A stretch of 36,461 nucleotides of DNA. Origin: Opitutia bacterium. GTDB taxonomy: Bacteria; Verrucomicrobiota; Verrucomicrobiia; Opitutales; UBA953. Of the stretch, positions 4,855 through 36,082 are shown piece by piece. Under the pieces are notes generated by a model, which worked only from the letters and a program-made list of their open reading frames with translations, did not search any database and was not told where the DNA came from. Made by a program: the position numbers and the translations under genes. The stretch's first letter is position 1. Every line of letters starts with the position of its first letter. The stretch spans positions 1-36,461 of the forward strand of contig JBAXUJ010000001.1 of the NCBI GenBank assembly GCA_037129735.1, read 5' to 3'.

Positions 4855-4977
4855 TTTTTAATAAAACCCATCACCAGCCCAGTGGTTTGTTTTTTAAACT
4901 CGTGATAACGCCACCTTTAAGCAGGTGCCACCCTCCAGTGTTTTAATGGATTACGTCTTTAATTAATATTTTTAAAA

Positions 4978-6033: not shown

Positions 6034-6037
6034 TATT

Positions 6038-7525: not shown

Positions 7526-7527
7526 AT

Positions 7528-13790: not shown

Positions 13791-14911
13791 AGAAGAAAGT
13801 TATATTCATTACAACTTCTTGGGGGAAGGGTGGGACGGGTCCGGAAATCTATGCCCGCTACTTATGGGAGGCCTTCCGCGACGACCCAGAGATTGAATTT
13901 CATTTAGTCGCCACAGGCTCTGGCTCTGATCATCCACGTTTACATTTAATTAATCCTCCTAAGAGCTCGCTAAACTTATATAGGGCGGTGGCGGAAAAAG
14001 GATTAGCGTTAGCGCGTTCATTGGGCCCTTCTGGAATTTTACACGTCAACAGTAGCAATCTTCATTCCTGCTTACTCCATTCGCCGTGGCCAGTATGGGG
14101 ACAGATTAATGACTACGAAAACACTACGGTTTTTTCTCAGGCATTTAAAATAATCAAAACTTATGGAATGCGACGCTGGGTCGCCTTGCTCCGTCGCTGG
14201 TGGCTGGAGCGCCAATTTGTCAATAAACAGGCACTGAGCTTGTGTAATTCCCAGTTCACGCAGCAGAATATTTTAGAAGCTTATAAACCTCAATATCCTG
14301 AGCGTCTTAAAGTTTTATATAAGGCCGTAGATACAACTCAATTTGAACGTCCTGCGGTCTTACCAGCTAATCCTCATCAGGTTGTTGATCATCGCGCCGT
14401 AGTTTTGTATGTGGGTTCTGATTTTCGTCGGAAGGGCTTAGATGATTTAATCAACGCTCTGCCTTTAATTAAAAATCCGCTGCACTTATCCATCGCGGGC
14501 GTCACCGAGCAACAATTTGTAACTGAATTTCCAGAGTTGGCTGGTTCTATTAAGAGTCCAATTCACACTATTCAATTTCACGGTCAGACCCCACGAGATA
14601 CTACCAAAGCCTTAATGTGGCATGCCGATGTGTTCTGTCTGCCTTCGCGCTCCGAAGCCCTCGGTGTTGCTATTTTAGAGGCTTTAGCTGCTGGCTTACC
14701 CTGTGTGTCTACGACTGTGGGCGGTATTCCTGAAATTGCCCGACATCTCGGCGGATGTGAATTAGTTGCACCCAATAATCCGCAAGCATTAGCTGAAGCT
14801 ATTGATGTAGTCATTCAGTCACCACCTGCCTTTTCTCAGTCTATCCTCGCAAGCTCTCCGTTTACGGTCTCAGCCATGACCCAATCCCTGCGTCATTTAT
14901 ATTTAAAATGA
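13787..14911 (+). CDS. Glycosyltransferase family 4
   Basis: 374 aa. VGSDFRRKGLDDLI and PSRSEALGVAILEALAAGLPCVSTTVGGIPE form the classical GT4 EX7E motif. ATGA overlap on both sides. Confidence 0.85.
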   Translation: MKKKVIFITTSWGKGGTGPEIYARYLWEAFRDDPEIEFHLVATGSGSDHPRLHLINPPKSSLNLYRAVAEKGLALARSLGPSGILHVNSSNLHSCLLHSPWPVWGQINDYENTTVFSQAFKIIKTYGMRRWVALLRRWWLERQFVNKQALSLCNSQFTQQNILEAYKPQYPERLKVLYKAVDTTQFERPAVLPANPHQVVDHRAVVLYVGSDFRRKGLDDLINALPLIKNPLHLSIAGVTEQQFVTEFPELAGSIKSPIHTIQFHGQTPRDTTKALMWHADVFCLPSRSEALGVAILEALAAGLPCVSTTVGGIPEIARHLGGCELVAPNNPQALAEAIDVVIQSPPAFSQSILASSPFTVSAMTQSLRHLYLK

Positions 14912-16062
14912 ATAAACCAAGTTTAGCACCACGATTTCTCTATATTTTTTGTATAGGATATTTAGTTACTATTTTCACGGCCGGGACTAACGCCTTGCCT
15001 TATCTGAGTATGGTAATGATTTCACTCGGACTACTTTTCGGAATGATTTCAGCTTCAGGAAGGTCTAACGCAGGTATCATCATTGTACTAATATTAATTT
15101 CAGTGCTCGCTGCTGTTAATTCAATCATTTCAACTAGTATGGCTGATACCAGTATTAAGTGGGCACTTTGGATGATTACCTTGTTTTCAATGTTTTCAAT
15201 GGCCCAGCGAGCAGGGTCATCCGTAGATGAGGCACTCTGTAAAAATACCGCCCCGGCATTTTTCATTATCTGGCTGGTTTTGGCGATTAAGGGTAACGCA
15301 TTAGCAGATACTGTCAAAGAAAGTACAACAACCCTGCACCTATCTGCTTTTTATGCTAATTTAGTTATTTGCGCGGGGATATTTTATCCTAAAAAATTTC
15401 TCCGTATTTTATTTGTTTTAGTGGGTGCCATCGGAGCTTTGACCTCGGGCTCCCGTGCAGCATTCCTTTTTCTTCCCTTAGTTTTTATTCCAGGAGTTGT
15501 TTACTATTTTAAGGTAAAATTATCCAGTATTGCCATAGTTGCCATGGTATTTGGTCTGTTGTTTACTATTTTAAATAACGATCAACTTACTGCGTTAACT
15601 TTTGGACGTAAAGGTGAAGAGATTACAAACATTGACTCGATGGAGTTGGCGGAAAGATCGGCCGGTGGTCGTGCTGAATTAAGAGAAATGGGAGTGAATT
15701 ATATTAAAGATAAGCCCTGGGGTTACGGGTATGGGCAAAGTATCGATGTCGTTATGGATGGCAAAAGCTTAGGTAACAACCTGCACAATGGATATCTTAA
15801 TGTCGCCACCCAGATGGGGCTTCACATCTTTTTAATTTATATGTCAGTGATTACATGGACTTACTATAAGCTTATGACATATGAGCGTATTTCTCGGCGT
15901 TCTCGTTTTTTCACACTGAGTATTTTAACTTGTGTATTTTTGCGTGCTATTTCCGAAAGTTTTAGTCTTTTCGATTTAGGTCACCCAGCGGCCTTTTTCT
16001 GTATCTTTCTTATTTCACTCTTTGTTATTCGCTACCAAAATCCACAGCGCCAATTTACCTAA
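14908..16062 (+). CDS. Wzy_C-domain membrane protein (O-antigen polymerase or ligase-like)
   Basis: 384 aa with about 10 TM helices. LTSGSRAAFLF sits before a large periplasmic loop, as in O-antigen ligase/polymerase (PF04932) proteins. Polymerase versus ligase cannot be resolved from sequence. Confidence 0.7.
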   Translation: MNKPSLAPRFLYIFCIGYLVTIFTAGTNALPYLSMVMISLGLLFGMISASGRSNAGIIIVLILISVLAAVNSIISTSMADTSIKWALWMITLFSMFSMAQRAGSSVDEALCKNTAPAFFIIWLVLAIKGNALADTVKESTTTLHLSAFYANLVICAGIFYPKKFLRILFVLVGAIGALTSGSRAAFLFLPLVFIPGVVYYFKVKLSSIAIVAMVFGLLFTILNNDQLTALTFGRKGEEITNIDSMELAERSAGGRAELREMGVNYIKDKPWGYGYGQSIDVVMDGKSLGNNLHNGYLNVATQMGLHIFLIYMSVITWTYYKLMTYERISRRSRFFTLSILTCVFLRAISESFSLFDLGHPAAFFCIFLISLFVIRYQNPQRQFT

Positions 16063-20955: not shown

Positions 20956-22176
20956 GTGCGGATCCTGTATTTTCATCAACACTTCACCACTCCTAAGGGG
21001 TCGGGTGGCACGCGATCGTATGAGTTTGCCCAAGCTCTTATTAAACGTGGGCATCAAGTGACGATGGTCTGTGGTCAAATGGATCGCGATTCACTCAATT
21101 TACCGTTTGATGAAAAGAGGGGATGGTCGCGTGGGTTGATTGATGGCATTGATGTCATTGCCTTGCCCTTGCGCTATTCCAATCACGATGGGGTAGGCCG
21201 ACGCTTAATCACCTTTTTTAAATATGCGCTCAAGAGTATTAAAATCGCCCTCGATTTTGAATATGATGTAGTCTTTGCAACTTCGACACCCCTCACCGCT
21301 GCGTTGCCAGGAATTTTTGCTAGTTGGTTAAAAGGAAAGAAATTTATTTTCGAAGTTAGAGATTTATGGCCGGAACTGCCTCGTGCCATGGGAATGAAAA
21401 ATCCTATCCTTCTAGGCGGCATGTGGATTATTGAGGGCTGTGCTTATCGAGCATCTTCCGCTTGCGTTGGGTTATCACCAGGAATTGTACAGGGCATCCG
21501 TCATCGTTCCGCAAAAAATCATCCCATCGCTTTAATTCCCAATGGATGCGATCTCGAAATTTTTAAACCTCAGCCTAAGTCTAAAATAAAAATTGAGGGC
21601 ATTAAGGAGGGTGACTTTGTGGCGGGTTTTACCGGAGCTCATGGTAAAGCCAACGGGCTTGACGCCATTATTGAAGCGGCCCGAGAACTTAAAAAAAGAA
21701 ATATAAATCACATAAAGTTTCTCTTAATCGGTGATGGATCTGAAAAAGCACGTCTGCAGAAAGTGGCTACCAGCGAACAGCTCGATTGCATTATTTTCCA
21801 TCCCCCCATTTCAAAGCTAGCGCTCGCGCAAATTACGGCCCAGTTGGATTGTGGGCTAATGTTCCTAGATAATATACCTGCTTTTTATTACGGAACATCC
21901 CCTAATAAGTTCTTCGATTATATCTCAGCCGGTATACCTGTGATTAATAATTACCCCGGGTGGTTGGCTGAAATGATTACACAAAATCAGTGTGGAGTCG
22001 CGGTTCCGCCTAAAGACACGCACGCCCTGGTAAATTCTTTAATAAGGTTGTGTGATAGTCCGGACCAGTGTACTCAGATGGGGCAGTCCAGTCGTCAATT
22101 AGCCCAAGAAAATTTTTCACGATCACTTCTAGCTAACCAATTCTGCGAGTTCATAGACCAACAAGTCACCTCATAA
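20956..22176 (+). CDS. Glycosyltransferase family 4, WbuB-like
   Basis: The GTG start gives MRILYFHQHFTTPKGSGGTRSYEFAQALIKRGHQVTMV, the characteristic WbuB-type N-terminus. The C-terminal SPNKFFDYISAGIPVI is also present. Confidence 0.8.
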   Translation: MRILYFHQHFTTPKGSGGTRSYEFAQALIKRGHQVTMVCGQMDRDSLNLPFDEKRGWSRGLIDGIDVIALPLRYSNHDGVGRRLITFFKYALKSIKIALDFEYDVVFATSTPLTAALPGIFASWLKGKKFIFEVRDLWPELPRAMGMKNPILLGGMWIIEGCAYRASSACVGLSPGIVQGIRHRSAKNHPIALIPNGCDLEIFKPQPKSKIKIEGIKEGDFVAGFTGAHGKANGLDAIIEAARELKKRNINHIKFLLIGDGSEKARLQKVATSEQLDCIIFHPPISKLALAQITAQLDCGLMFLDNIPAFYYGTSPNKFFDYISAGIPVINNYPGWLAEMITQNQCGVAVPPKDTHALVNSLIRLCDSPDQCTQMGQSSRQLAQENFSRSLLANQFCEFIDQQVTS

Positions 22177-23189
22177 TGAGTTATTTACTAGAGCAAGTTT
22201 ACTTCATTTCAGATTCTGTACAATGGACTGAACTCCTAAAGTTTTTTGGGTATTCGGATATTTATCATACCTTTGAATATTCTAGTTTAGAGGCCGAGAG
22301 AATAGGTGGTATCGCTAACCTGATTATTATTAACTTACCTACTGGTATTATTGGATTGCCTGTTATTTTCAGAAAAGTCCCCAACGAAAGTCGATATATC
22401 GACGCCATATCCGTTTACGGATACAGCGGGGTTTTAACCTCTACGTCGCTCACTTCAGAGGATTTTTTATCTGGAATGAAAAAAATAAAAGCTGCGTTAG
22501 TTGAGCGAGACTGTGTCAGCCTTTTTAACCGAGAGTCTAATTTTACCCCCTATCGACTAACTGAATCTACAGAAGCAGGAAAAGTTTTAGCAGTAGATTT
22601 GATGCAAGATCCTGAACAATATGAAAAATCTCTAGCCGAGGGCCATCGTCAAGAAATCAAGGCTCTGCGTAAGTTGAACTACACTGTAGTCAAATCTGCC
22701 GAACCCAAAATCGTTGAGGATTTTCACGAAGTCTATGAACAGACTATGCTCCGACGTGGGGCCAAGATTAACTATTTTTTTAACGCAGTTTATTTTAATT
22801 CAGTATTAAAAATTCACTCGAGTATTCCAGACTTACGGGCGGTTTATCATGAAGGTAAAATGGCCGCTGGAGCAATTTTTATTACCCAAGGTGATCACAT
22901 GTATTATATGTTTTCGGGTACTGTTTTGGGTATTTCACGTTACCCGGCGATGAAACTAATTTTAGATCAGGTGATTCGCGAAAATTTAAATAATGGCAAA
23001 AAGCTACTTCATCTAGGGGGTGGTCTAGGTGGCAAACAAGATTCCTTATATCAATTTAAATTTGGTTTCGGAAAAGTAGTTTTGCCATTTTACACGACGC
23101 AATGGATTTTAATGCCGGAGGTGTATAATCGCCTGAGTGCTCATGTCTTAACGGACACCAGCTTCTTTCCTAGGTACCGTAGCGCTTAA
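22176..23189 (+). CDS. FemAB/GNAT-fold (BioF2-like) acyl- or aminoacyl-transferase
   Basis: 337 aa. The general layout and the C-terminal LHLGGGLGGKQDSLYQFKFGFG resemble FemAB-related proteins found in EPS and PEP-CTERM loci. TAATG overlap with the upstream GT4. Confidence 0.5.
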   Translation: MSYLLEQVYFISDSVQWTELLKFFGYSDIYHTFEYSSLEAERIGGIANLIIINLPTGIIGLPVIFRKVPNESRYIDAISVYGYSGVLTSTSLTSEDFLSGMKKIKAALVERDCVSLFNRESNFTPYRLTESTEAGKVLAVDLMQDPEQYEKSLAEGHRQEIKALRKLNYTVVKSAEPKIVEDFHEVYEQTMLRRGAKINYFFNAVYFNSVLKIHSSIPDLRAVYHEGKMAAGAIFITQGDHMYYMFSGTVLGISRYPAMKLILDQVIRENLNNGKKLLHLGGGLGGKQDSLYQFKFGFGKVVLPFYTTQWILMPEVYNRLSAHVLTDTSFFPRYRSA

Positions 23190-23542: not shown

Positions 23543-24235
23543 ATGCCTAATGCTATTATTACAGGAACTTCGCGCGGGCTCGGCCGTGCCCTAGCAGAAA
23601 AACTACTGAATGAGGGCTGGAAGGTTTGGGGATTTTCTCGGAGTCCATCGCCCATTAAACATGAACATTACTGCGAGCATTTAATCGACATTACCGATGA
23701 AGCCGCGGTGCAAAATGCTATTAGTCAGATCAGTCAAAGTTCATCAGATATTGATCTATTAGTGAATAATGCCGGTGCTGCCTCCATGAACGCTTTTTTA
23801 CTTACTCCTGCTAGAACTGCGGAAGCCTTGATGCGTCTCAATTATTTAGGGACCTTTCATTGTCTGCAGGCGGCGGGTAAGTTGATGGTTCGTCAACGTC
23901 ATGGTTTGGTTATTAATATTACAACGGTGGCGGTGCCCCTGGTGCTTGCAGGCGAAGCAGCTTATGCGGCGAGCAAAGCAGCGGTAGATTCGCTGACCAA
24001 AGTCACCGCCGAAGAATTTAAGTCACATGGCATCACGGTGATTGGTTTAGGGTTTGGACCGATGGACACGGATTTAATCAAAGCAGTGAATAAAGAAAAA
24101 ATTAACCAAATTAATCAGCGTATTAATCGCCCTGAGGGTACCACGTTAAACCAAGCGGTAGATTTTATTTTCGAACACCTAGACAAAAAATCCATCACCT
24201 CGGGCGATTTATATTATTTAGGCACAATTCCGTAG
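23543..24235 (+). CDS. Short-chain dehydrogenase/reductase (3-oxoacyl-ACP reductase-like)
   Basis: 230 aa. ITGTSRGLGRALA (TGxxxGxG), NNAG, YAASKAA (YxxxK). Starts 1 nt after the ACP stop. Confidence 0.85.
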   Translation: MPNAIITGTSRGLGRALAEKLLNEGWKVWGFSRSPSPIKHEHYCEHLIDITDEAAVQNAISQISQSSSDIDLLVNNAGAASMNAFLLTPARTAEALMRLNYLGTFHCLQAAGKLMVRQRHGLVINITTVAVPLVLAGEAAYAASKAAVDSLTKVTAEEFKSHGITVIGLGFGPMDTDLIKAVNKEKINQINQRINRPEGTTLNQAVDFIFEHLDKKSITSGDLYYLGTIP

Positions 24236-25579
24236 ATGAATTTTTGGTTACACGAGCGATTCAAAAAATTTAATACTAAGCCAGCCCTAGTCGGTACTTG
24301 GGGTGAGTTTTCGTATGCCGACTTGGCAAACTTAACCGAAAAAATCGAAAGTGAGTTTAAGGGCTTAGCTGGATCTGCACCGACAACGATTGGTTTAGTG
24401 GGGGACTGGTGTCCCGCTAGCGTTGCTTGGTTGGTCGCCTCCGAGCGTTTACAACACTGGGTTGTGCCGATGACAGATCACGCACAGGAGACCGCGGAAA
24501 AACTTAATCAAATTCATGCCCAGTGGGTGGTCATTACTGAGGGAGCAACTTGGAAAATTTATCCACGCGCAGCTGTCGGTAAATTAGAATTAGATAACGC
24601 CCAATCACTTCCGACATCACACGCAGGCTTAATTTTATTTTCTAGTGGTACGAGTGGTAGTCCGAAAGCGATGCTTCAGGATTTGAGTAACTTACTCAGT
24701 ACTTACGAGTCTCGGCATGAAAATTCCTTAATCATTTTGAGTTTACTCGGTTTTGATCATATCGGTGGTATTAACACATTGTTAGGAGGATTGGCCGCGG
24801 GTTCCCTCATGGTGATTCCCGAAAGTCGAGCCCCCGATCAAGTAGCAGCTATCATCAAAAAATATCACGTAGCGATTCTTCCCGCGACCCCCACTTTCCT
24901 GAATCTACTTTTACTGGCCGCCGCCGACCGCTTAACGGATTTAGCTTCACTCCGTTTAATTACTTATGGAACTGAACCGATGCCTGAGGCCTTGTTGGCT
25001 CGTCTACGTCAGGTGCTTCCCTCGGTTCGTTTAATTCAAACTTTTGGTACGACGGAAACAGGAATTTTAAAAACCGAGAGTCCCGACGGCGATTCCAATT
25101 TTTTAAAAATTAATGATCCCAATGTTGAGTGGAAAATAGTGAATGAAGAGTTGTGGCTAAAAACCCGTACACAGATTCGAGGATATTTAAATGCATCAAA
25201 CGAAAAATTCACAGACGATGGCTGGTTCATGACGGGCGATAAAGTGGAGGTTGGACCTAATAACACTCTACGAATTTTAGGACGCTCCGGTGAGATGATC
25301 AATGTCGGTGGACAAAAGTTAATGCCTACTGAAGTTGAGTCGGTCATCTTAAGTGTGCCAGGCGTAGTTGACTGCAGAGTCTTTGGAGAAAAAAATGCGA
25401 TGGTTGGTCAAACGGTCGCCGTTGATATTGTTGCTAGTGCCGGACAGAATTGGGAAACGTTACGCGCTTTAATCAGACAAACCTGTCGCCAAGCCCTATC
25501 CACCTACAAAGTGCCTACGCGATTGAACTTAGTGAGTGCGATTTCTACAAACCGCCTTAAAAAACAGAGAACGAGTTAA
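24236..25579 (+). CDS. AMP-dependent synthetase/ligase (adenylate-forming; acyl- or aminoacyl-carrier-protein ligase)
   Basis: 447 aa. LILFSSGTSGSPKAM (AMP-binding core), YGTEPMP, GWFMTGD, GRSGEMINVGGQKLMPTEVE. It is shorter than typical acyl-CoA synthetases. The start abuts the upstream stop. Confidence 0.85.
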   Translation: MNFWLHERFKKFNTKPALVGTWGEFSYADLANLTEKIESEFKGLAGSAPTTIGLVGDWCPASVAWLVASERLQHWVVPMTDHAQETAEKLNQIHAQWVVITEGATWKIYPRAAVGKLELDNAQSLPTSHAGLILFSSGTSGSPKAMLQDLSNLLSTYESRHENSLIILSLLGFDHIGGINTLLGGLAAGSLMVIPESRAPDQVAAIIKKYHVAILPATPTFLNLLLLAAADRLTDLASLRLITYGTEPMPEALLARLRQVLPSVRLIQTFGTTETGILKTESPDGDSNFLKINDPNVEWKIVNEELWLKTRTQIRGYLNASNEKFTDDGWFMTGDKVEVGPNNTLRILGRSGEMINVGGQKLMPTEVESVILSVPGVVDCRVFGEKNAMVGQTVAVDIVASAGQNWETLRALIRQTCRQALSTYKVPTRLNLVSAISTNRLKKQRTS

Positions 25580-25593
25580 AAGCCCGCAGCTCT

Positions 25594-26667
25594 ATGCAAA
25601 TAACACTCTCACATTTTCGTCTAGCTGGTTTGGCCGTTTCTACGGGGGCCGACAACCGAGACTATATAAAAGACGGACTGGCTCATGGCATCAGCCTCGC
25701 TCATTTAGAACGTGTCGCTAAAACAATCGGGCTAAAAGAACGCAAAGTAGCGTCAGCAGGTGTGACGGCGTTGGATTTATGTGAAGATGCTAGTCGTCGA
25801 CTTTTGGCTGCGATGGATATCGATGTCTCCACAATTGATGCCATTATTTTCGTCACCCAAACTCCTGATCATTCTCAGCCTAACAACGCATGTCTTTTGC
25901 ATGGTCGCTTGGGTTTAGCTAAATCTTCCATCGCTTTTGATTTATCGTTGGGTTGTTCGGGTTGGGTTTATGGACTTCATCAAGCGGGTTTACTTTGCGC
26001 CCATGGCGGGGCAGGGCGCGTTTTACTCTGTAGTGGTGATACCTTAAGTCGGTTAACTCATCCACAGGACCAGTCCATGAACCCTCTATTTGGTGATGCA
26101 GGCTCGGCCGCGATTGTAGAGCGTACAGGCTCTCACACTCCTTGGTATTTTGTTTTGGGGTCCGATGGAAAACTCTCCGCGACGATTAAAGTACCTGCAG
26201 GGGGCGCACGCTTACCGACTTCATCAGAAACTCGTGTAGAAAGTAAAGGCTCTAACGGTAATATTCACCACGCTGAAAATCTAATGATGGACGGCGCCGA
26301 GGTTTTTAATTTTTCACTTCGTGAAGTTCCCGCTGCTATCAATACAGTTATTAAAAACGCTCAGTGGAGTTTAACCGAGGTCGATGCATTGGTCTTACAC
26401 CAGGCTAATAAATTTATTATCGAAAATATTGCGACTAAGTGTGGATTAAAAGCTACTCACGTTCCGTCGAACTTAGTAGAGAAATACGGCAACCAAAGCT
26501 CGGCCTCTATTCCAGCCGCATTGATTGAGGGCCTAGGGGAGAAACTCGCTAACCGTTCGCAGAAAATTGTGGGCTGTGGATTTGGGGTAGGCTTGTCTTG
26601 GGCAGCTTTTGCCTCTGAGATCGGGCCAGTCATAACGTGTCCTATTCAGCCCTATCCTTTAAAATAA
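25594..26667 (+). CDS. 3-oxoacyl-ACP synthase III (FabH/KAS III family)
   Basis: 357 aa. Cys-His-Asn triad contexts: SLGCSGWVYGL, VLHQANKFIIENI, GNQSSASIP. Confidence 0.85.
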   Translation: MQITLSHFRLAGLAVSTGADNRDYIKDGLAHGISLAHLERVAKTIGLKERKVASAGVTALDLCEDASRRLLAAMDIDVSTIDAIIFVTQTPDHSQPNNACLLHGRLGLAKSSIAFDLSLGCSGWVYGLHQAGLLCAHGGAGRVLLCSGDTLSRLTHPQDQSMNPLFGDAGSAAIVERTGSHTPWYFVLGSDGKLSATIKVPAGGARLPTSSETRVESKGSNGNIHHAENLMMDGAEVFNFSLREVPAAINTVIKNAQWSLTEVDALVLHQANKFIIENIATKCGLKATHVPSNLVEKYGNQSSASIPAALIEGLGEKLANRSQKIVGCGFGVGLSWAAFASEIGPVITCPIQPYPLK

Positions 26668-26894
26668 TGTCGTTAACTTTCGAATCCCATCTTCAAGCAC
26701 TTCAAAAAGAAGTCGATGTACTTGTGGGAGTGTCACCCGATGCTCCCTTAAGCGGTCTGCCACAATGGGACTCACTGGCAATTTTATTAGTGATTTCTCA
26801 TTTTGAGTCTACTTACAAAATGAGTGTGACCGGAAAAGAAATTCGTCAGTGTAAAACCATTCGAGAACTTATTAAACTTATCCCTCAATCATGA
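26667..26894 (+). CDS. Second acyl carrier protein-like protein
   Basis: The track starts at 26637 inside the KAS III gene. ATG 26667 (TAATG overlap) gives a 75-aa protein with LPQWDSLAILLVISHFE (Ser36, nt 26772-26774). Confidence 0.6.
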   Translation: MSLTFESHLQALQKEVDVLVGVSPDAPLSGLPQWDSLAILLVISHFESTYKMSVTGKEIRQCKTIRELIKLIPQS

Positions 26895-27517
26895 AAAATC
26901 TTTTTATTGTCGGTGCTGGCGGATTTGGTCGCGAGGTTTATGCCTGGATCAAGCAACATCCTGAATTTAACAAGACTTGGGTTCTAGCTGGATTCTTGGA
27001 TGACAATCTCGAAGCCCTTAATCCTTTTGGTAATTTCGCCAATGTCTCAGTTTTAAAGAATCACCAAGTTTCACCCGCTAACGTTTATATCTGTGCCTTA
27101 GGACTCCCCCTGGTTAAATCGAAATTACTTGCTCCATTGATTGAGCAGAAGGCAGAGTTTATTTCTTTTATTCATCCGACGGCTGTCATCGGCGAAAGAG
27201 TAAAGATAGGTCGCGGAGTGGTTGTTTGCCCCGGAGCGAGTATTTCCGTGGATATTTCGATTGGCGATTTTTCTATGATTGGACCCAATACTACCATCGG
27301 ACATGATGGCACTATTGGCGCATGGTGTACGCTGTGTGCACAGTGCGATGTCACTGGTCGTGTTACCATTGGCGACGGAGTGTTTTTAGGAAGTCGGGTT
27401 TCCATTATACCCAGCAAAAAAGTTGGCCGTGGCTCTATTCTTGGTGCTGGTTCCGTGGTAATATCCGATGTCCCCGAGGGAGTGACGGTGGTCGGTAACC
27501 CCGCGCGTATTTTATAA
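26891..27517 (+). CDS. NeuD/PglD-family sugar N/O-acyltransferase (Rossmann-like N-domain plus LbH)
   Basis: 208 aa. LFIVGAGGFGREVYAWI...AGFLDD, then the hexapeptide repeats IHPTAVIGERVKIGRGVVVCPGASIS...VVGNPARIL. ATGA overlap with the ACP gene. Confidence 0.85.
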   Translation: MKNLFIVGAGGFGREVYAWIKQHPEFNKTWVLAGFLDDNLEALNPFGNFANVSVLKNHQVSPANVYICALGLPLVKSKLLAPLIEQKAEFISFIHPTAVIGERVKIGRGVVVCPGASISVDISIGDFSMIGPNTTIGHDGTIGAWCTLCAQCDVTGRVTIGDGVFLGSRVSIIPSKKVGRGSILGAGSVVISDVPEGVTVVGNPARIL

Positions 27518-27524
27518 ATCTCAT

Positions 27525-28253
27525 ATGAAAAAATTTATCTTATATTTTGGCGGGTTTTTATTACTAAGTATTTTTGCTTTAATCATTTATACGGAGTTTT
27601 TAAGTTCCCGTTCACGTCGCTTCACGGGAAGCTTGGAAAAAGTTTTACCACCCGACGGTTTTGACGGTTGGAAACGTGAATCTATTCCGCTGGGCGATTC
27701 AAATGCCGCCAAAGCTAATGTGCAGGGTATTTTAAATTACAGTCAGGCTGTTCAGTATTTATATACCAAAAATAAATCGCAGTTCCTCATCTATGTTGCC
27801 TATTGGGAGCCTTCTACTGTTTCCGTGGCGGATGTAGGAACGCATAACCCCGATTCTTGCTGGGTGAATAATGGCTGCACGAGAACTGACCGCGACTTTG
27901 CCGTCGCTGGAAAAGTGGGTTCACGCTTACTTCAGCCCTACGAATATGGACAATATATTACGCCGCGTGGTGATCGTCAGAATGTGTTATTTTGGCACCT
28001 AGTAAATGGGCAGCCTAATCGTTATGCGGATCAAGAACAAGGCTGGCGTGCTGGACTCAAGGGGCGCATGGAAAGACTTCCCTTGCTCATCAAAGACTTC
28101 AAAGAATTTGGACTTAACCAAAAAAACGAGCAGATGTTTATCCGTGTTTCCACCTTTTTACCCGTAAAAAATTTACTCGCTGATCCAGCGAACGAGAAAA
28201 TTTTTAATGCTTTAGAAGAAATTGGAATCTTTCAAAACCAAGCTTGGAAATAG
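27525..28253 (+). CDS. EpsI-family-like (DUF3485, exosortase-associated) membrane-anchored periplasmic protein
   Basis: 242 aa with an N-terminal TM. LPPDGFDGWKRESIPLG, LIYVAYWEPS...GTHNPDSCWVNNGC and VLFWHLVNG follow the pattern I recall for EpsI proteins (lP..GW.., vaYY.., H.P..ClpG.GW). Confidence 0.55.
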   Translation: MKKFILYFGGFLLLSIFALIIYTEFLSSRSRRFTGSLEKVLPPDGFDGWKRESIPLGDSNAAKANVQGILNYSQAVQYLYTKNKSQFLIYVAYWEPSTVSVADVGTHNPDSCWVNNGCTRTDRDFAVAGKVGSRLLQPYEYGQYITPRGDRQNVLFWHLVNGQPNRYADQEQGWRAGLKGRMERLPLLIKDFKEFGLNQKNEQMFIRVSTFLPVKNLLADPANEKIFNALEEIGIFQNQAWK

Positions 28254-28291: not shown

Positions 28292-29710
28292 ATGATTCCT
28301 TTATACGTTGATTTAGATGGCACCTTACTTCGTGGTGATTCCTTGCACGAGGCTTGCACCCGTCTACTTTTAAAGCCGAGCAAGTTTTTGAGCGTGGCTT
28401 TGTCGTTACTACGTGGAAAAGCTGCCTTTAAACAAAAAGTAATCGAATCCGTTGAGCTCCCCGCCGCAACATTGCCTTATCGCCATGATTTTATTGAATG
28501 GCTTAAAATACAAAAAGCATCTGGCCGTAAACTCATTTTAGCCACTGGAGCTGACCGTGAAATTGCCACACGTGTTGCGGAATATTTAAATCTTTTCGAC
28601 GAGGTCTTGGCTAGCGAGGGGAAGATTAACATTACCGGAGGAAATAAATTAGATGTCATTAAAGCACATGCTGGAAATCAGCCTTTTGCCTATGCTGGCA
28701 ATGACACCATTGACCTGATTATTTGGAATGAATGCGCTTCGGTTGTTCTAGTGGGGGATGGTGTTAAATATGTTAAAAAAATTAAACCCTCCGTCCTTAT
28801 CGAAAAACAATTTTCTGATGAGGTTAACAAACCCGCTAAAATCCTGAAGTTATTACGTCCGCATCAATGGGTAAAAAATATATTAATTTTCCTACCTGCC
28901 GCCGCTGCTCATCAGCTAACTTCACTGCCGATTATAAAATCAGACTTAGCCTTATTCGCAGCCTTTTCACTCTGTGCCTCAGGTGTTTATGCCGCCAATG
29001 ATTTATTAGATTTACCGAGTGATCGAAAGCACGCTCATAAGCATAATCGTCCTTTAGCTTCAGGTGCTGTCAGCATTCCTGTAGGTTTATTTTTAGCGAT
29101 AACGCTTCCTGTGGCTGGTTTAATCACTGCAACCTACACGGTGGGCTGGGGTGCCACAGCCATGGTAGCTTCCTATTGGATTATTACTACCTATTACTCC
29201 TTCAGTGGTAAACGCGTGCCGCTCTTAGATGTTTTTCTCCTTGCTGGACTTTATACATTCAGAGCGGTTGCCGGGTCCTTGCCGATTAATTCAGGTATGT
29301 CCGAGTGGATGGCTGCCTTCTTGCTCTTTTTATTTTTCAGTTTGGCATGTCTCAAACGCTTTTCTGAATTATTAAATTTACCTGCTAATCAAAACGAAAA
29401 AATAGCTGGTCGTGGTTACATCAGAGAAGATTACCAATTAATGGCGCTACTAGGAGTCGGATCGGCGTTCGCCTCAACTTTGGTTGTTTGCCTCTACGCT
29501 GCTAGTCCCTCGGTGACTGGACTTTATGCCAAGCCATTTTATTTAATGGCGATAGCTCCCTTGGTGTTATTCGGCTTGGCGCGCTTTTGGCTGCAAGCTT
29601 GGCGTGGCGAGTTGCACAACGATCCCGTAGTCCATGCCTTAAAAGATGGAACATCATACCTATTGATCCTGTTGTCTGCCCTAGCCATGTTGGCAGCAAC
29701 AAGCCTATAA
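28292..29710 (+). CDS. HAD-IB phosphatase domain fused to a UbiA-family polyprenyl-phosphate phosphoribosyltransferase (DPPR synthase-like)
   Basis: 472 aa. N-terminus MIPLYVDLDGTLLRGDS (HAD motif I) ...GNDTIDL. The C-terminal ~290 aa have 8-9 TM helices with YAANDLLDLPSDRKHAHKHNRPLASG (NDxxDxxxD; nt 28996-29022), very like Rv3806c-type enzymes. Confidence 0.8.
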   Translation: MIPLYVDLDGTLLRGDSLHEACTRLLLKPSKFLSVALSLLRGKAAFKQKVIESVELPAATLPYRHDFIEWLKIQKASGRKLILATGADREIATRVAEYLNLFDEVLASEGKINITGGNKLDVIKAHAGNQPFAYAGNDTIDLIIWNECASVVLVGDGVKYVKKIKPSVLIEKQFSDEVNKPAKILKLLRPHQWVKNILIFLPAAAAHQLTSLPIIKSDLALFAAFSLCASGVYAANDLLDLPSDRKHAHKHNRPLASGAVSIPVGLFLAITLPVAGLITATYTVGWGATAMVASYWIITTYYSFSGKRVPLLDVFLLAGLYTFRAVAGSLPINSGMSEWMAAFLLFLFFSLACLKRFSELLNLPANQNEKIAGRGYIREDYQLMALLGVGSAFASTLVVCLYAASPSVTGLYAKPFYLMAIAPLVLFGLARFWLQAWRGELHNDPVVHALKDGTSYLLILLSALAMLAATSL

Positions 29711-29714
29711 ATTT

Positions 29715-31070
29715 ATGCCAGATAACCTTATAGCCGGTTGGGGAAATTTGCCTATTTCAAATGCCGAGGTGAAAACACCTGATACTGACCTTGGTCTTTC
29801 CAACCAAGTATCATCGGGTTCGCAGTTTATAAGTCGTGGGCTTGGTCGTGCCTATGGTGATGCAGCTTTACCCTCAAAAGAGAGCGGCGCGGTCATAAGC
29901 GGACTTGGGCTAAAAAGATTTTTATCTTTTGATGAGTCTTCGGGTATTTTAGTCGCTGAGTCGGGCGTTAGCTTGGCCGAAATAATAAAAGTTTTTTTAC
30001 CTCGGGGATGGTTTCTTCCCACCGTGCCTGGCACAAAATTTGTTACTTTAGGCGGAGCGGTGGCTGCAGATATACACGGAAAAAACCATCATATCGACGG
30101 CACGCTGGGTGTTCACGTGGTCTGGCTTGATCTGGTTATTGCCAATGGGGAAACCCTCCAATGCTCGCCTTCCCAAAATGTAGATATTTTTCGGGCTACA
30201 GTGGGTGGCATGGGTTTAACTGGTCATATCATCCGTGTGGCCATTCGCCTTCGTCGTGTCCCTAGCGCCTATTGCAAAGTTAGATATATCAAAAGTAAGA
30301 ACCTTGCTCACACCCTTTCTCTGCTGTCCGAGCATGATGTAAATTATCGTCACACAGTCGCATGGATGGACTGTCTGGCCAGTGAGGAAAAATTAGGCCG
30401 TGGGGTTTTAATGTTAGGCAATGAAGCAGAAACAACGGATTTATCTCAATCACAGCTAAAATCCGGACCACATAAGTTACCCAATCGCCCACAGCTTTCG
30501 GTACCCTTTAATTTCCCCTCCTGGTTTCTGGGTAATACTTTTGTCAGTATTTTTAATTTTCTCTTCTATGGTTTGGCTAAAAATACGGTAAAGATTGTAG
30601 ATTACGAAAAATTCTTTTTTCCACTGGATACAATAAAACACTGGAATCGAATTTATGGTCGTCGGGGCTTCGTTCAGTTCCAAGCCTATTTTCCTGATGC
30701 CACGGCAGAAAAAGGCTTACAAGAGTGTCTTGAGGCAATCAGTCGAGTAGGCTTAGCATCGTTTTTGGCCGTATTAAAGCGTTCAGGCAAAGCGAATGAA
30801 TTTCCGTTATCTTTTTTAGATAAAGGCTATACCTTGGCTTTAGACATACCGGGTGACCCCAAAAAACTTCCGCTATTGATGAACGAACTAGATGCTATTC
30901 TAGCAAAATATAACGGCAGAATTTATTTTGCTAAAGATGCCATGGTGAATCCGGATTTAATCCCTACCATGTATCCAGGACTCAATGAATTTAAGCGTAT
31001 CAAGGCTTCGGTAGATCCCAAGGGGCTTATTCAATCACGTCTTTCTAAGAGACTCCATTTACATGACTAA
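29715..31070 (+). CDS. DprE1-like FAD-dependent polyprenylphospho-ribose 2'-oxidase
   Basis: 451 aa. GWGN, RGLGRAYGDAAL, LPTVPGTKFVTLGGAVAADIHGKNHH, TVGGMGLTGHI, FFFPLDTIKHWNRIYGRRGF, RIYFAKD. Collinear with M. tuberculosis DprE1 as I recall it. Confidence 0.85.
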   Translation: MPDNLIAGWGNLPISNAEVKTPDTDLGLSNQVSSGSQFISRGLGRAYGDAALPSKESGAVISGLGLKRFLSFDESSGILVAESGVSLAEIIKVFLPRGWFLPTVPGTKFVTLGGAVAADIHGKNHHIDGTLGVHVVWLDLVIANGETLQCSPSQNVDIFRATVGGMGLTGHIIRVAIRLRRVPSAYCKVRYIKSKNLAHTLSLLSEHDVNYRHTVAWMDCLASEEKLGRGVLMLGNEAETTDLSQSQLKSGPHKLPNRPQLSVPFNFPSWFLGNTFVSIFNFLFYGLAKNTVKIVDYEKFFFPLDTIKHWNRIYGRRGFVQFQAYFPDATAEKGLQECLEAISRVGLASFLAVLKRSGKANEFPLSFLDKGYTLALDIPGDPKKLPLLMNELDAILAKYNGRIYFAKDAMVNPDLIPTMYPGLNEFKRIKASVDPKGLIQSRLSKRLHLHD

Positions 31071-31791
31071 ACTAAAAGCTGTTCTTATTGTTGGGGCAAC
31101 CTCACCGATTGCACGGGCCTATGCGGACCGATGTGCTCAAGCGGGACACCCTTTAATCCTGGCGGGCCGTGATTTAAAAGAAATCAATAGCACGGCTAGT
31201 GATTTAGCGATTCGCTATGAAGTTAAAACAGACGTAGTATTTTACAACGCCGCTGAACAAGGGGCAGGAGTATCGCTTGCCAAACAAGCTTTAGCCCAAG
31301 ATCTCGCCAGCGTGGTTGTATTTCATGGTATTATGGTTGGCCGTGAAGGCTTCTCGGAAATGTTGCAGATTAACTGCGGCTCGATTGCAGAATTATTTGA
31401 AGCGCTGATTGATGGTGCTGTAGCATCTAATCAAAAGCCCACTTTGGCTGCGGTATCCTCTGTGGCCGGAGATCGTGGTCGCCAATCTAATTATCCCTAT
31501 GGTGCATCTAAAGCTGCTCTGGATGCCTATTTATCGGGTTTAAGAAATCGTGCCTATCCACTGGGTATCAATGTCATCACCATTAAGCCTGGTTTCGTGC
31601 GAACCCGTCTCACTGAAGGAAAAGTAAATCCGAAATCACCCTTACTAGCTTCACCTGAAAAAGTGGCTGGAGATATTTTTAATGCCGTTCAGTCGGGTCG
31701 TAGTATTTGTTACACTCCCTGGTTCTGGGCTTATATTATGTGTATTATTCGTTCTATTCCGGAGTTTATTTTTAAAAGGCTGAAACTGTGA
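31063..31791 (+). CDS. DprE2-like SDR (polyprenylphospho-2'-keto-pentose reductase)
   Basis: 242 aa. VGATSPIARAYA, YGASKAAL, KPGFVRTRL, and the C-terminal tail WFWAYIMCIIRSIPEFIFKRLKL resembling the Rv3791 tail. 8-nt overlap with the DprE1-like gene. Confidence 0.75.
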   Translation: MTKLKAVLIVGATSPIARAYADRCAQAGHPLILAGRDLKEINSTASDLAIRYEVKTDVVFYNAAEQGAGVSLAKQALAQDLASVVVFHGIMVGREGFSEMLQINCGSIAELFEALIDGAVASNQKPTLAAVSSVAGDRGRQSNYPYGASKAALDAYLSGLRNRAYPLGINVITIKPGFVRTRLTEGKVNPKSPLLASPEKVAGDIFNAVQSGRSICYTPWFWAYIMCIIRSIPEFIFKRLKL

Positions 31792-32189
31792 TTACGGCCA
31801 CCCAGATTTTTTGGCGGTATTTATTGTTCTGTTTATTAGCGATCATCGCTAATTTAGGGCTCCAAGCGATTGCCCACGAAATAGTGCACACGCCTGATTG
31901 GTTTTCCATGGGAATAGGAACCGCCGGGGGCCTAGTTTTAAAATATATCTTAGATAAAAATTTCATTTTTTTCGCAGAAAAAACTACGGCCGTGCGAGAT
32001 TTCAAACGTTTTGTTATTTATACTCTCTTTGGTCTACTGACGACATTCCTCTTTTGGTCTACCGAATGGGCCTTTATTAAACTTTGGGCTCATCCCTTCT
32101 CGCGCTATTGCGGCGGAGTTATCGGTTTGTCTCTAGGATACTATATTAAATATAACTTAGACCGAAAGTGGGTTTTTAAAATTATCTAA
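31788..32189 (+). CDS. GtrA-family small membrane protein (putative lipid-linked sugar translocase)
   Basis: 133 aa with a GTG start (GTGA overlap) and 4 TM helices. KYILDKNFIFF and KYNLDRKWVFK are the GtrA-family half-repeat endings. Confidence 0.75.
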   Translation: MITATQIFWRYLLFCLLAIIANLGLQAIAHEIVHTPDWFSMGIGTAGGLVLKYILDKNFIFFAEKTTAVRDFKRFVIYTLFGLLTTFLFWSTEWAFIKLWAHPFSRYCGGVIGLSLGYYIKYNLDRKWVFKII

Positions 32190-32198
32190 TCTTAAGCC

Positions 32199-33284
32199 AT
32201 GTTTTCCAAATTCAAAAAAAATTTTTTAGTATTTTCAGTTTTCTGGCTTGTGGCGTCAGCTACTTATTCCGGCTTTATTGCGAAGTGGGGTTTGAGGGAC
32301 TCGCCCCAGGATTATAAATATAACTTAGAAAAAATGCTAGATGGTACTGCTTATAAACCCTTTGTTTACAGACAGCTACTTCCGTCGTCGGCAAACTTTA
32401 TAGGCAATAATACACCCGAAAATTTTATAAATTTAGTAAATGAAAAATATAAATACGGGCCTTTTAGAGATTATGCTTTTTCCAGTAGTCTGATTGGAGC
32501 TCCAGCTAAATATAAATTTAAGTGGCTTATTGTATATTGGATGGGCTTTGGTATGTTGCTGGGATCTTTATACATAATACGTGGCATTCTTTCTGACCTT
32601 GGTCTTAGCCCTTTAGCTGCTGTTTTTGCTCCGTGTATATTTAGCCTATGTATGCCCATTATCCAAACCGGTGGGGGCTACGTATATGATTATAGCGAAC
32701 TCTTTTTTATGTCTTTAGCGGTCTATTTGACACAAAAGAATCGCCCCGTGCTACTCTTGCTTGTTGTTGCTTTAGCCACCTTTAATAAAGAATCATTTAT
32801 ATTTTTCCTACCTGCTCTTTACCCATTTTTACCTAAGTCCGAGCTGATAAGTAAAACACACTTTTTTTATGGGCTACAGTTTTTATTTTCAGCCTGCATA
32901 AATTTATGGATAAAAAATATCTATAGTGGCAACGAAGGTAAAATGCTAGAAATCTGGTTCACGACAAACATCCAAAATTATCTTAATCCTATTACTTATT
33001 TAAAATTTGATGGGTCTTACGGTTTACTTGCGCCTAAAGGTTTTAACATACTTACTGTTTTGTTAATTTTAATTTTAATTAAAATATCATGGAAATATTT
33101 AGACCCAAAATTGCAGAAGCATTGTTTAATCGCCTTTTTTATTAATTTCCCTCTCTTTATCATCCTTGGGTTTTATAATGAGATTCGAGGTTTAAGTCTT
33201 CTCTATATATCATTAACTTTTTTAATTGCTTATGCTATCGACAACTACGGCAAGGAATTTCCTTCAGAGCCTTTAAAGATATAA
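32199..33284 (+). CDS. Polytopic membrane protein; candidate GT-C-type transferase using the lipid-linked pentofuranose donor
   Basis: 361 aa with about 9-10 TM helices and no signature I recognise. Very AT-rich. It occupies the position held by arabinofuranosyltransferases next to GtrA/DprE1/DprE2 in mycobacteria. Confidence 0.35.
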   Translation: MFSKFKKNFLVFSVFWLVASATYSGFIAKWGLRDSPQDYKYNLEKMLDGTAYKPFVYRQLLPSSANFIGNNTPENFINLVNEKYKYGPFRDYAFSSSLIGAPAKYKFKWLIVYWMGFGMLLGSLYIIRGILSDLGLSPLAAVFAPCIFSLCMPIIQTGGGYVYDYSELFFMSLAVYLTQKNRPVLLLLVVALATFNKESFIFFLPALYPFLPKSELISKTHFFYGLQFLFSACINLWIKNIYSGNEGKMLEIWFTTNIQNYLNPITYLKFDGSYGLLAPKGFNILTVLLILILIKISWKYLDPKLQKHCLIAFFINFPLFIILGFYNEIRGLSLLYISLTFLIAYAIDNYGKEFPSEPLKI

Positions 33285-33299
33285 AAGTTTTCAATAATT

Positions 33300-34427
33300 A
33301 TGAAAAAAATCTATTTATCTGCGCCTGATATCGGTAAACTTGAGCAGGTCTACGTGAATGAGGCCTTTGCCACCAATTGGGTGGCTCCTGTGGGTCCTCA
33401 CATCGATGCCTTCGAAAGAGAATTTTCTCAGGTCGTTGGAACGAAGTATGCCGTCGCGTTATCTTCAGGCACGGCCGCTTTACACTTAGCACTCCGCCTG
33501 GCTGGGGTGACAGCGGGTGACGAAGTTTTGTGCTCTTCGCTCACGTTCATTGCTTCCGCTGCTCCGATTACTTACTTGGGCGCCCATCCAGTATTTATTG
33601 ATTCCGATGAAGTCAGTTGGAATATGGATCCCGCTTTAGCTATTGAAGTTATAGAGAAAAAGGTGCGCGCTGGTAAAACTCCTAAGGCGCTCGTCTTAGT
33701 TCACTTGTATGGACAATCCGCCGATACCCAACCGATTAAGGAGTGCTGCGATAAGCACGGCATTAAACTCATTGAGGACGCCGCCGAGGCCCTTGGAGCT
33801 ACTTATAAGAGCGGTACACCAGGTTCAATGGGTTGGGCCGGAATTCACTCCTTTAATGGTAATAAAATTATCACCACGTCAGGAGGCGGTATGCTGGTCA
33901 CGAATGACGAGAAATTAGCGACAACCGCCCGATTTTTATCCACCCAAGCTCGCGATCCAGCTCCACATTATCAACACACGACGATTGGTTATAATTATCG
34001 TATGAGTAATATTTGTGCGGGTATTGGTCGTGGTCAATTAAGTGAGCTCGGCAAGAAGGTGGCGCGACGCCGAGCGCACTTCGCCGCTTATCAAGAAGCA
34101 TTTAAAACTTTTCCTGGTGTAGCGATGCAACCCGAGGCGTCTTGGGGTAAATCCACCCATTGGTTAACCTGTTTAACAGTCGATCCAAGCAAGTCGCCAG
34201 TATCCCGTGAAGAGGTTAGACTGGCTTTAGAAAAAGAAGATATTGAAAGCCGGCCGATCTGGAAGCCCTTACACCTTCAGCCCGTATTTGCTCAAGCTGA
34301 GTATCATGGTCGTGGGGTGAGTGATAGAATTTTCGAACAAGGCTTATGTGTTCCGTCGGGCTCAGGTATGTCGGACAGCGAGCGCAATCGCGTCATTGAT
34401 TCGACGGTGAAACTGTTTGCTAAATAA
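33300..34427 (+). CDS. DegT/DnrJ/EryC1-family PLP sugar 4-aminotransferase (PglE/EpsN-like)
   Basis: 375 aa. KIYLSAPDIGKLEQVYVNEAFATNWVAPVGPHIDAFEREF..ALSSGTAALHLAL...FNGNKIITTSGGGML (PLP Lys context). Close to the B. subtilis EpsN N-terminus as I recall it. Confidence 0.9.
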   Translation: MKKIYLSAPDIGKLEQVYVNEAFATNWVAPVGPHIDAFEREFSQVVGTKYAVALSSGTAALHLALRLAGVTAGDEVLCSSLTFIASAAPITYLGAHPVFIDSDEVSWNMDPALAIEVIEKKVRAGKTPKALVLVHLYGQSADTQPIKECCDKHGIKLIEDAAEALGATYKSGTPGSMGWAGIHSFNGNKIITTSGGGMLVTNDEKLATTARFLSTQARDPAPHYQHTTIGYNYRMSNICAGIGRGQLSELGKKVARRRAHFAAYQEAFKTFPGVAMQPEASWGKSTHWLTCLTVDPSKSPVSREEVRLALEKEDIESRPIWKPLHLQPVFAQAEYHGRGVSDRIFEQGLCVPSGSGMSDSERNRVIDSTVKLFAK

Positions 34428-34449: not shown

Positions 34450-34474
34450 AAACCGCTAACGAAGCGGTTTTTTT
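34450..34474. terminator. Bidirectional rho-independent terminator between convergent operons
   Basis: AAACCGCT-aacga-AGCGGTTT: a perfect 8-bp stem and 5-nt loop followed by a T7 run on the plus strand. An A-rich 5' flank gives a T-rich tail on the minus strand. It lies between the stop codons at 34427 (+) and 34505 (-). Confidence 0.8.
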
Positions 34475-35476: not shown

Positions 35477-36082
35477 TTACTTAGCGTCACCCTCAAACTC
35501 TTCCATGGTAGCTGCCTTACTTGAATTAATATTGCTACGATTTAGGACGACAAAAAAAGTTCTTACGACGATTTTAAGATCCAACCAAAAGCTACTGTTA
35601 TCGATGTATGAAACATCGAGCGCAAATTTCTCATCCCAACTGATGGCGTTGCGGCCATTGATTTGGGCTAAACCCGTGACGCCTGGTTTCATTTCCATGC
35701 GTCGCGCCTGAAATTTATTATAGCGTGGTAAATAGCGCATCATTAAAGGGCGTGGGCCGACGACGCTCATATCTCCGATGAGCACATTCCACATTTCGGG
35801 AAATTCATCGAGCGTGGTGGATCGCAAAAATTTGCCAAAGGTGGTCAGGCGTACTTCGTCAGACAGTAGATTTCCTGCTTCGTCTCTGGCATCTGTCATG
35901 GTTCGGAATTTTACCATACGAAAGGGCTTCGCGTCTTTACCGGGGCGCTCTTGAATAAAGAAAATGGGTGAGCCGAGTTTAATCCGTACTAAAACTCCAA
36001 CGACGATTAAGAGTGGCGAAAACCCGATGAGCCAAGCCAGCGAAAAAATAATATCGAAGGCTCTTTTGAAAAAATGATACAT
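35477..36082 (-). CDS. Small monotopic phosphoglycosyl transferase (PglC/EpsL-type bacterial sugar transferase), initiating enzyme
   Basis: 201 aa. KRAFDIIFSLAWLIGFSPLLIVVGVLVRIKLGSPIFFIQERPGKDAKPFRMVKFRTM, DEFPEMWNVLIGDMSVVGPRP, KPGVTGLAQINGRN. Confidence 0.92.
   Translation of the reverse strand: MYHFFKRAFDIIFSLAWLIGFSPLLIVVGVLVRIKLGSPIFFIQERPGKDAKPFRMVKFRTMTDARDEAGNLLSDEVRLTTFGKFLRSTTLDEFPEMWNVLIGDMSVVGPRPLMMRYLPRYNKFQARRMEMKPGVTGLAQINGRNAISWDEKFALDVSYIDNSSFWLDLKIVVRTFFVVLNRSNINSSKAATMEEFEGDAK

Follow-up and report, generated by a model that had tools for sequence, protein, structure and literature searches.

An EpsI-like protein of Opitutales whose gene lies in an N-acyl-aminosugar cassette, unlinked to the exosortase gene

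What does an EpsI-family protein do in a polysaccharide locus that holds no exosortase gene? EpsI was originally noticed in Methylobacillus sp. 12S, where its gene lies downstream of epsH, and was listed as having "no known function" (Haft 2006, PMC1569441); a 2026 paper groups EpsH and EpsI merely under "protein modification" (PMC13751637). The stretch of DNA analyzed here, the window, is the complete 36.5-kb contig C1 (36,461 nucleotides) of a freshwater Opitutales MAG (G000; 1.40 Mb, 233 contigs, 85% complete). An initial annotation of the window had described one of its genes as an orphan member of the EpsI/DUF3485 family:

27525..28253, + strand: EpsI-family protein, 242 aa, ATG start, with an N-terminal anchor (residues 2-26) and a predicted periplasmic alpha/beta domain

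The motifs on which that description was based, namely a hydrophobic N-terminus, LP..GW, YW/YY and H-x-P-x-x-C, are all present in the 242-residue frame, as LPPDGFDGW (residues 41-49), YVAYWEP (90-96) and THNPDSCWVNNGC (106-118). The protein thus has the layout of an N-terminal anchor followed by an H-x-P-x-x-C domain; the motif was examined here on Opitutales sequences, and we take it to be typical of PF11984 as a whole. The first 30 residues contain no Cys and no obvious signal-peptidase site. We therefore read the helix at residues 2-26 as a signal anchor and the domain as periplasmic, so that the protein would be a type II membrane-anchored periplasmic protein.

Direct profile searches place the window protein below all curated thresholds. 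PF11984 did not match it in a Pfam search at E≤10, and a PF11984 scan of the whole genome returned zero matches, the window gene included. Among NCBIfam models, EpsI_type_B matched at E 0.002 with 17.5 bits (cutoff 220) and EpsI_type_V with 13.4 bits (cutoff 228). The TIGR02914/PF11984 check proposed in the initial annotation therefore failed for the protein itself but gave clear matches for its homologs. The homolog pool comprised 395 near-length clusters (90% library) and 521 representatives (50% library), nearly all of them stand-alone proteins of ~240 aa. PF11984 matches 57 of 60 aligned homologs (best E 1.5e-18), and TIGR02914, EpsI type B, EpsI type V or the XrtD C-terminus matches 45-53 of the 60 (TIGR02914: 45/60). 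In the ESM Atlas, the clusters closest to the protein bear the automatic name "exosortase-associated EpsI family protein", and the window-family profile matches the C-terminal domains of fused exosortases. Based on the homolog matches to PF11984 and on the H-x-P-D-x-C-W core common to exosortase-fused EpsI domains, the window protein is, as judged from sequence through intermediates and profile, clearly a divergent member of the EpsI superfamily, and the original assignment was right. In Table 1 of Haft 2006 no EpsI is listed for Verrucomicrobium spinosum (PMC1569441), which would fit if verrucomicrobial copies, like the one in the window, go unrecognized by the model.

Seven residues (L70, W94, H107, P109, C112, Q203 and R207) are invariant in 60/60 aligned homologs, and these together with D110, W113, G117 and W157 show little or no variation across copies that are fused, next to an exosortase gene, cassette-linked or otherwise placed. 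Fused, adjacent and unlinked copies do not differ at any motif residue, which speaks for a single molecular function conserved among them. Among the invariant residues are a His (H107) and just one Cys (C112), a pair that might be catalytic rather than binding. Against five orthologs that are 91-93% identical, dN/dS is 0.03-0.05, indicating that the gene is under strong purifying selection and is no relic; it is best explained as encoding a functional EpsI.

An AlphaFold2 model built from the 60-sequence alignment (mean pLDDT 93.1, pTM 0.88) begins with a helix (residues 2-26) and continues into a compact alpha/beta domain. Foldseek found no match to this model in the PDB at E≤0.001, and a profile search of PDB sequences returned chance-level matches only (E > 0.1), with no solved EpsI structure found. 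In a wide VIA-align search nearly all of the top 20 matches were Mog1/PsbP-like, with Z scores of 5.4-7.0 over 109-137 aligned residues (model residues ~32-242); because Z scores below 8 may reflect only a common arrangement, this fold assignment is tentative. The top matches were TM1622, Mog1, PsbP (2xb3), the PknH sensor domain (4esq), DcrB (6e8a), SciW, MTC28 (4pws), TiME (7cu8) and LpqN (6e5d). Mog1/PsbP-like domains are extracytoplasmic, often membrane-tethered, non-enzymatic adaptors, and folds of this kind are typically non-catalytic. Their identity to EpsI is 5-13% and none has the HxPDxCW motif, so the likeness is one of fold only and not of family membership. EpsI thus probably, if tentatively, has a Mog1/PsbP-like binding fold that carries an invariant His-x-Pro-Asp-x-Cys-Trp loop. 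If the assignment holds, EpsI is more likely to bind a ligand or serve as an adaptor than to be an enzyme, and a binding role, not a catalytic one, is what we infer for it.

The claim that the window holds no exosortase gene is borne out for the full contig C1. Elsewhere, however, the genome has exactly one exosortase, alongside exactly one EpsI-family ORF. The exosortase (337 aa) is encoded on contig C195 beside a glycogen-synthase-like gene and housekeeping genes, and the Cys-x-Gly, Asn-x-x-Arg and His-x-x-x-Gly motifs defined by Haft 2006 (PMC1569441) are intact in it as CSG, NIFR and HDFAG. It scores 43.7 bits on the exosortase/archaeosortase signature model (cutoff 23) and lies below the cutoffs for XrtA (TIGR03109, 60.5 bits, cutoff 208), XrtV (20.2 bits, cutoff 313) and the other subtypes. 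At least eight ORFs in the genome encode PEP-CTERM proteins, with tails that run from PEPSTYGL through a hydrophobic stretch to RRRK. The EpsI gene is thus not a true orphan, and between the remnant and the split exosortase system that had been offered together as one explanation, the split system is the right description.

In the genus of the window, the EpsI and exosortase genes are always on different contigs. On long contigs from the same genus (G053, G247 and G265) the contig ends are no closer than 175-412 kb to the EpsI gene, and in relatives with closed or near-closed genomes, where both genes are on a single replicon, they are separated by 0.64 Mb (G035), 0.86 Mb (G118), 1.1 Mb (G223), 1.35 Mb (G152) and 2.0 Mb (G158). 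The other arrangement that had been considered, an exosortase gene in the same operon just past the ends of C1, is ruled out by these long contigs of relatives, with distances of at least 175-412 kb and up to 2 Mb. The initial annotation also took it as the norm that EpsI is encoded next to, or fused to, an exosortase. In Opitutales this is so in two places. Throughout family f3 and nowhere else (G026, G211 and at least 11 other genomes), the EpsI gene is directly upstream of an unfused exosortase gene, and in part of family f23 an EpsI domain is fused to the exosortase in proteins of 535-552 aa. Elsewhere the two are unlinked, and unlinked EpsI and exosortase genes are the norm in the order, a point that had been missed. 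In a FastTree tree (no support values displayed) the branching is too weakly resolved to tell whether the adjacency in f3 is ancestral or derived.

The two genes tend to occur in the same genomes. A single set of 251 Opitutales genomes, nearly all of which reach 90% completeness or more, was searched with three profiles; these matched EpsI in 160, any exosortase (PF09721) in 198, and the unfused exosortase clade to which the protein on C195 belongs in 152. Counted by hand, an exosortase is present in 158 of the 160 genomes with EpsI; the two others are G084, with a weak EpsI match, and G131, which is 91% complete in 200 contigs. No family in the draw has EpsI but no exosortase. A hand tally of EpsI against the unfused clade gave 146 genomes with both, 14 with EpsI only, 6 with the exosortase only and 85 with neither; the 14 are mostly genomes with fused or weak matches, or members of f35 with exosortases at the E-value threshold. 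In families f11, f18, f19, f24 and f30 the exosortases are of other kinds, mostly fused, and both stand-alone EpsI and the unfused clade are absent. Because the genomes are related to one another, these counts overstate independence. The co-occurrence is confounded by phylogeny, since there are reduced-genome families without either gene, and exosortases are common in the order. Across Opitutales, stand-alone EpsI co-occurs with one unfused exosortase clade.

The immediate neighbors of EpsI in the window are of another kind. The gene is part of a co-directional array from 36 to 34427, with no terminator-like site before a hairpin at 34450-34470. The genes of this array and its surroundings that matter here are:

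14908..16062, + strand: Wzy_C (O-antigen ligase/polymerase-like) membrane protein, in the same operon
22176..23189, + strand: FemAB/GNAT-fold protein, in the same operon
23543..24235, + strand: SDR, 3-oxoacyl-ACP reductase-like (VioR-like)
24236..25579, + strand: AMP-forming acyl ligase (many matches, including the exosortase A-associated ligase model TIGR03098 at 103.9 bits)
25594..26667, + strand: KAS III (FabH/VioS-like) condensing enzyme (Pfam/NCBIfam, synteny)
26637..26894, + strand: candidate acyl carrier protein (ACP), 85 aa (WDSLAIL serine motif, position between KAS III and NeuD)
26891..27517, + strand: NeuD/PglB/VioB-family sugar N-acyltransferase (TIGR03570 177.6 bits, cutoff 160.8; Pfam; synteny)
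28292..33284, + strand: five-gene polyprenyl-phospho-pentofuranose (DPA-like) module, an insertion that separates the EpsI gene from DegT
33300..34427, + strand: DegT/LegC/VioA-type sugar aminotransferase (TIGR04181 377.7 bits; Pfam; synteny)
35477..36082, - strand: small Bac_transf (PglC-like) polyprenyl-phosphate sugar-phosphate transferase, which recurs near EpsI in many families

The FemAB-like protein, the AMP-ligase, the Wzy_C protein, the NeuD-type acyltransferase and the HAD-UbiA protein had been named previously and were recovered here. The carrier protein that had also been named has no match in Pfam or NCBIfam; its serine motif and its conserved position in relatives stand, and it is assigned on these two grounds. 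The parts of a viosamine/bacillosamine-type module are thus co-located in the window: aminotransferase, NeuD/VioB, KAS III, reductase, candidate ACP and PglC-like transferase. Of the markers of an XrtA/PEP-CTERM locus (Haft 2006) that were searched for, namely the exosortase, the ligase and FemAB, none is present in the locus at the equivalog level: the ligase is far below the TIGR03098 cutoff of 592, the exosortase is elsewhere, and the FemAB-like protein gave no match to the PEP-CTERM FemAB model. The closest described counterpart of the cassette is the viosamine island of Pseudomonas syringae pv. tabaci, which consists of vioA, vioS, vioB, vioR and acp and makes an N-(3-hydroxybutanoyl) amino sugar used for protein glycosylation (PMC3927599). 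In a comparison of gene content only, the window matches the island part for part, with DegT, KAS III, NeuD/VioB, a 3-oxoacyl-ACP reductase and a small ACP, whereas EpsI and the AMP-ligase are present in the window cassette and not in the island.

We compared 140 fetched loci, in which ORFs were called, with the window proteins and with an HMM built from exosortase cores only. In the family of the window the gene order is almost invariant: SDR, AMP-ligase, one to three variable genes, KAS III, ACP, NeuD/VioB, EpsI and DegT, with Bac_transf nearby. The most constant upstream neighbor is the NeuD-type acyltransferase gene, whose stop codon in the window is 7 nt before the EpsI start, and in relatives the DegT gene either directly follows the EpsI gene or diverges from it. 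The variable genes in relatives often encode an AsnB-type amidotransferase, with TIGR03108 (XrtA/PEP-CTERM amidotransferase) as the best NCBIfam match at 412 bits (cutoff 817). The DPA-like module is not in the conserved EpsI neighborhood and is absent at the same position in relatives with 91-93% identity (L016-L018).

Cassette genes also surround EpsI in f2, f10, f12, f14, f17, f22, f26 and f32, and single cassette genes are near it in f13, f15, f16 and f23. The arrangements differ: EpsI is divergent from DegT and a PglF-like dehydratase gene in f12, is followed by NeuD, ligase, SDR and KAS III in f14, and adjoins a gene for a 650-aa Wzy_C-TPR protein in f32, and in one genome of f3 (G211, locus L155) exosortase, EpsI, SDR, ligase and Bac_transf are contiguous. 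At least two cassette genes lie within 6 kb of EpsI in 90 of 139 EpsI loci, and one in 14 of 139, in a sample biased towards the window genus. Altogether, cassette-linked EpsI occurs in at least 12 families with varied gene orders and orientations. No cassette is nearby in about one-fifth of the loci, namely those of f31, f35, most of f23 and an animal-gut clade in which EpsI is beside argS and folD. EpsI is thus repeatedly and specifically embedded in an N-acyl-aminosugar cassette, which the initial annotation had missed.

Presence and absence within the genus follow the same line. A NeuD ortholog occurs in exactly the EpsI-bearing genomes, except for G017, which has EpsI fragments at contig ends. 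Six genomes of the genus lack both NeuD and EpsI and keep the exosortase, and four such genomes, of 87-96% completeness in 10-40 contigs (G023, G015, G006 and G271), are also devoid of Bac_transf and DegT orthologs. This joint presence and absence suggests that EpsI behaves as part of a glycan module that varies between genomes. Since seven genomes of the genus keep the exosortase without EpsI, EpsI is not an obligatory exosortase subunit.

Compared with the EpsI proteins already described, the window protein differs mainly in its genomic setting. With classical EpsI (TIGR02914/PF11984) it shares homology, a bitopic layout, a periplasmic domain, the H-x-P-x-x-C core and a polysaccharide locus, as well as a genome that encodes an exosortase and PEP-CTERM proteins; in contrast, its gene is unfused, hundreds of kb from the exosortase gene, and located between N-acyltransferase and aminotransferase genes. 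EpsI type B (NF045609) and type V (NF045608), the partners of XrtB and XrtV, are separate proteins of ~220 aa that are named as exosortase-associated and whose genes typically adjoin their exosortase gene. They are the best direct matches of the window protein and match 49-52 of its 60 relatives, but the window protein itself reaches only 13-17 bits (cutoffs 220-228) and the exosortase of its genome is neither XrtB nor XrtV. In exosortase-EpsI fusions (the XrtD TIGR04152 type and the 535-552-aa proteins of f23) the EpsI part keeps all of the invariant residues and matches the family profile at about E 1e-45. There EpsI is joined to an 8-TM exosortase, whereas in the window it is a separate gene product with its own anchor, paired by co-occurrence with an unfused exosortase clade of ~340 aa.

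Several pieces of evidence suggest that EpsI could have a glycan role independent of exosortase, its fold having been recruited to bind or process a lipid-linked acylated sugar, perhaps with Cys112 and His107 as a catalytic dyad: (i) Linkage to NeuD, DegT, KAS III, ACP and Bac_transf is tight and resists rearrangement in many families. (ii) Within the genus EpsI and the module are strictly present or absent together, and the exosortase persists without the module. (iii) The gene is 7 nt from an acyltransferase gene in a long co-directional operon. (iv) The protein offers one Cys and a His that never vary. We nevertheless do not favor such a role, which had also been raised at the outset, because an exosortase accompanies EpsI in 158 of 160 genomes and because EpsI is adjacent or fused to it in sister lineages. 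No family has EpsI alone, the exosortase-fused copies have the same invariant residues, many copies (f23, f31, f35 and the gut clade) have no cassette near them, and the Mog1/PsbP-like folds are, as noted, mostly non-catalytic. Known viosamine-type cassettes also need no such periplasmic protein (PMC3927599). Taken together, we regard an exosortase-independent role as unlikely, though it deserves to be taken seriously.

The distribution and homology that tie EpsI to the exosortase would also fit if EpsI were a generic exosortase partner that rearrangement has moved, with its position accidental and no functional tie to the sugar cassette. A chance position, however, would not turn up again and again in 12 or more families of differing gene order, nor would it lead to the joint loss of EpsI and the cassette from genomes that retain the exosortase; we find this reading rather improbable. 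That the gene is a decaying, non-functional remnant of a former EpsH-EpsI operon, as was also proposed, might be thought from the lack of an exosortase in the contig and from scores below the Pfam and NCBIfam thresholds. This is scarcely credible and is rejected, given the dN/dS of 0.03-0.05, an intact frame in which the family-invariant residues are all kept, a confidently predicted fold, and conservation in 160 of 251 genomes.

Homology and distribution thus tie EpsI to the exosortase, and neighborhood and co-loss tie it to the glycan module. Both ties fit a reading in which EpsI is a membrane-anchored periplasmic accessory that works in trans with a distant exosortase and is specific to an N-acyl-aminosugar glycan; we put the probability of this reading at roughly 60%. 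Such an accessory would act together with the exosortase on the periplasmic side of the inner membrane, perhaps in physical contact with it, and would couple the processing of PEP-CTERM proteins to a polyprenol-linked glycan bearing the N-acylated amino sugar made by the neighboring genes. It might bind the glycan or lipid and hand it to the exosortase, or it might recognize glycan-decorated cargo, and it would be dispensable where a species carries a different glycan locus. One could speculate further that the glycan is the acceptor of the exosortase and EpsI its adaptor. In its most specific and quite doubtful form, this would make EpsI of Opitutales an acceptor-specificity module that recognizes a polyprenol-linked glycan containing an N-acylated 4-amino-4,6-dideoxyhexose, a product of the flanking genes, and presents it to the unlinked exosortase, so that PEP-CTERM proteins are transferred onto the glycan or sorted with it. 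If true, it would name the acceptor of exosortase transpeptidation and explain why EpsI travels with glycan-specific genes.

We have not found described elsewhere the order-wide unlinking of stand-alone EpsI from the exosortase, its repeated embedding among N-acyl-aminosugar genes, or its joint loss with that module. For annotation, the window gene illustrates that pipelines run at curated thresholds miss EpsI copies of this type, and that the absence of an exosortase nearby should not be equated with an orphan. For the biology of the family, that the EpsI gene follows one sugar-modification module and not the exosortase provides a lead, namely that within the sorting machinery EpsI may be the component that confers specificity for a glycan.

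In locus L001 (contig C195, region 4358-6823), the only exosortase gene of the source genome lies directly 5' of a gene for a glycogen-synthase-like GT5 protein of 483 aa. Its surroundings are housekeeping genes, including a UvrD-like helicase and a lipoyl-synthase-like gene, rather than a polysaccharide locus, and on its upstream side the contig extends ~100 bp beyond the exosortase gene. In the same genome, at least eight ORFs carry the PEP-CTERM tail PEPSTYGL...RRRK at their C-terminus. These ORFs are spread over contigs C36, C57, C80, C101, C160 and C223, and include two giants (1950 and 2918 aa) as well as two tandem pairs encoding proteins of ~180-270 aa.

EpsI homologs also occur in other settings. 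A gut-associated clade of the window's EpsI family, found in animal-gut Opitutales/Puniceicoccales MAGs (fetched loci L084-L093), is flanked by housekeeping genes, with argS upstream and folD downstream in L087 and L093, and no polysaccharide genes are nearby in these loci. In the Opitutales family f32, the EpsI gene adjoins one for a ~650-aa protein that combines a Wzy_C (O-antigen ligase/PglL-like) membrane domain with C-terminal TPR repeats:
L127, 5926-7875, minus strand: Wzy_C-TPR protein
L128, 8838-10802, plus strand: Wzy_C-TPR protein

Certain homologs lie within far longer open frames of 385-679 aa, which may represent N-terminal extensions, fusions, or merely early in-frame start codons:
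L116, 9545-10702, minus strand: long frame with EpsI homolog
L125, 1388-2731, minus strand: long frame with EpsI homolog
Genome G007, contig C45: 679-aa open frame with EpsI homolog

Most relatives carry an AsnB-type amidotransferase gene upstream of KAS III that is absent from the window (L158, 4199-6094, plus strand; equivalent ~632-aa genes occur in many same-family loci). Its top NCBIfam match is TIGR03108, the XrtA/PEP-CTERM system amidotransferase, at 412.5 bits over the full length, under the 816.9 cutoff.

In the window, EpsI and DegT genes are separated by an insertion that occupies precisely the space between them, a five-gene, DPA-like donor module for polyprenyl-phospho-pentofuranose (28292-33284) comprising:
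HAD-UbiA protein (PRK08238, 508.8 bits)
DprE1-like FAD oxidase (405.6 bits)
SDR
GtrA
AZOBR_p60025-like membrane protein (361 aa)

Relatives L016-L018 (91-93% identical) are without the module at that position, and L019 has a UbiA gene downstream of its EpsI gene.

Elsewhere in the window, 4978-7525 forms a nonulosonic-acid branch, in which a cytidylyltransferase (351 aa) is followed by a NeuB-family synthase (495 aa) with an additional C-terminal cupin domain. Four long, co-directional ORFs of the polysaccharide operon (439-607 aa) have no Pfam match at E<=0.001 and are presumably membrane proteins or novel transferases:
3376-4854: long ORF
7519-8838: long ORF
8866-10353: long ORF
10350-12173: long ORF
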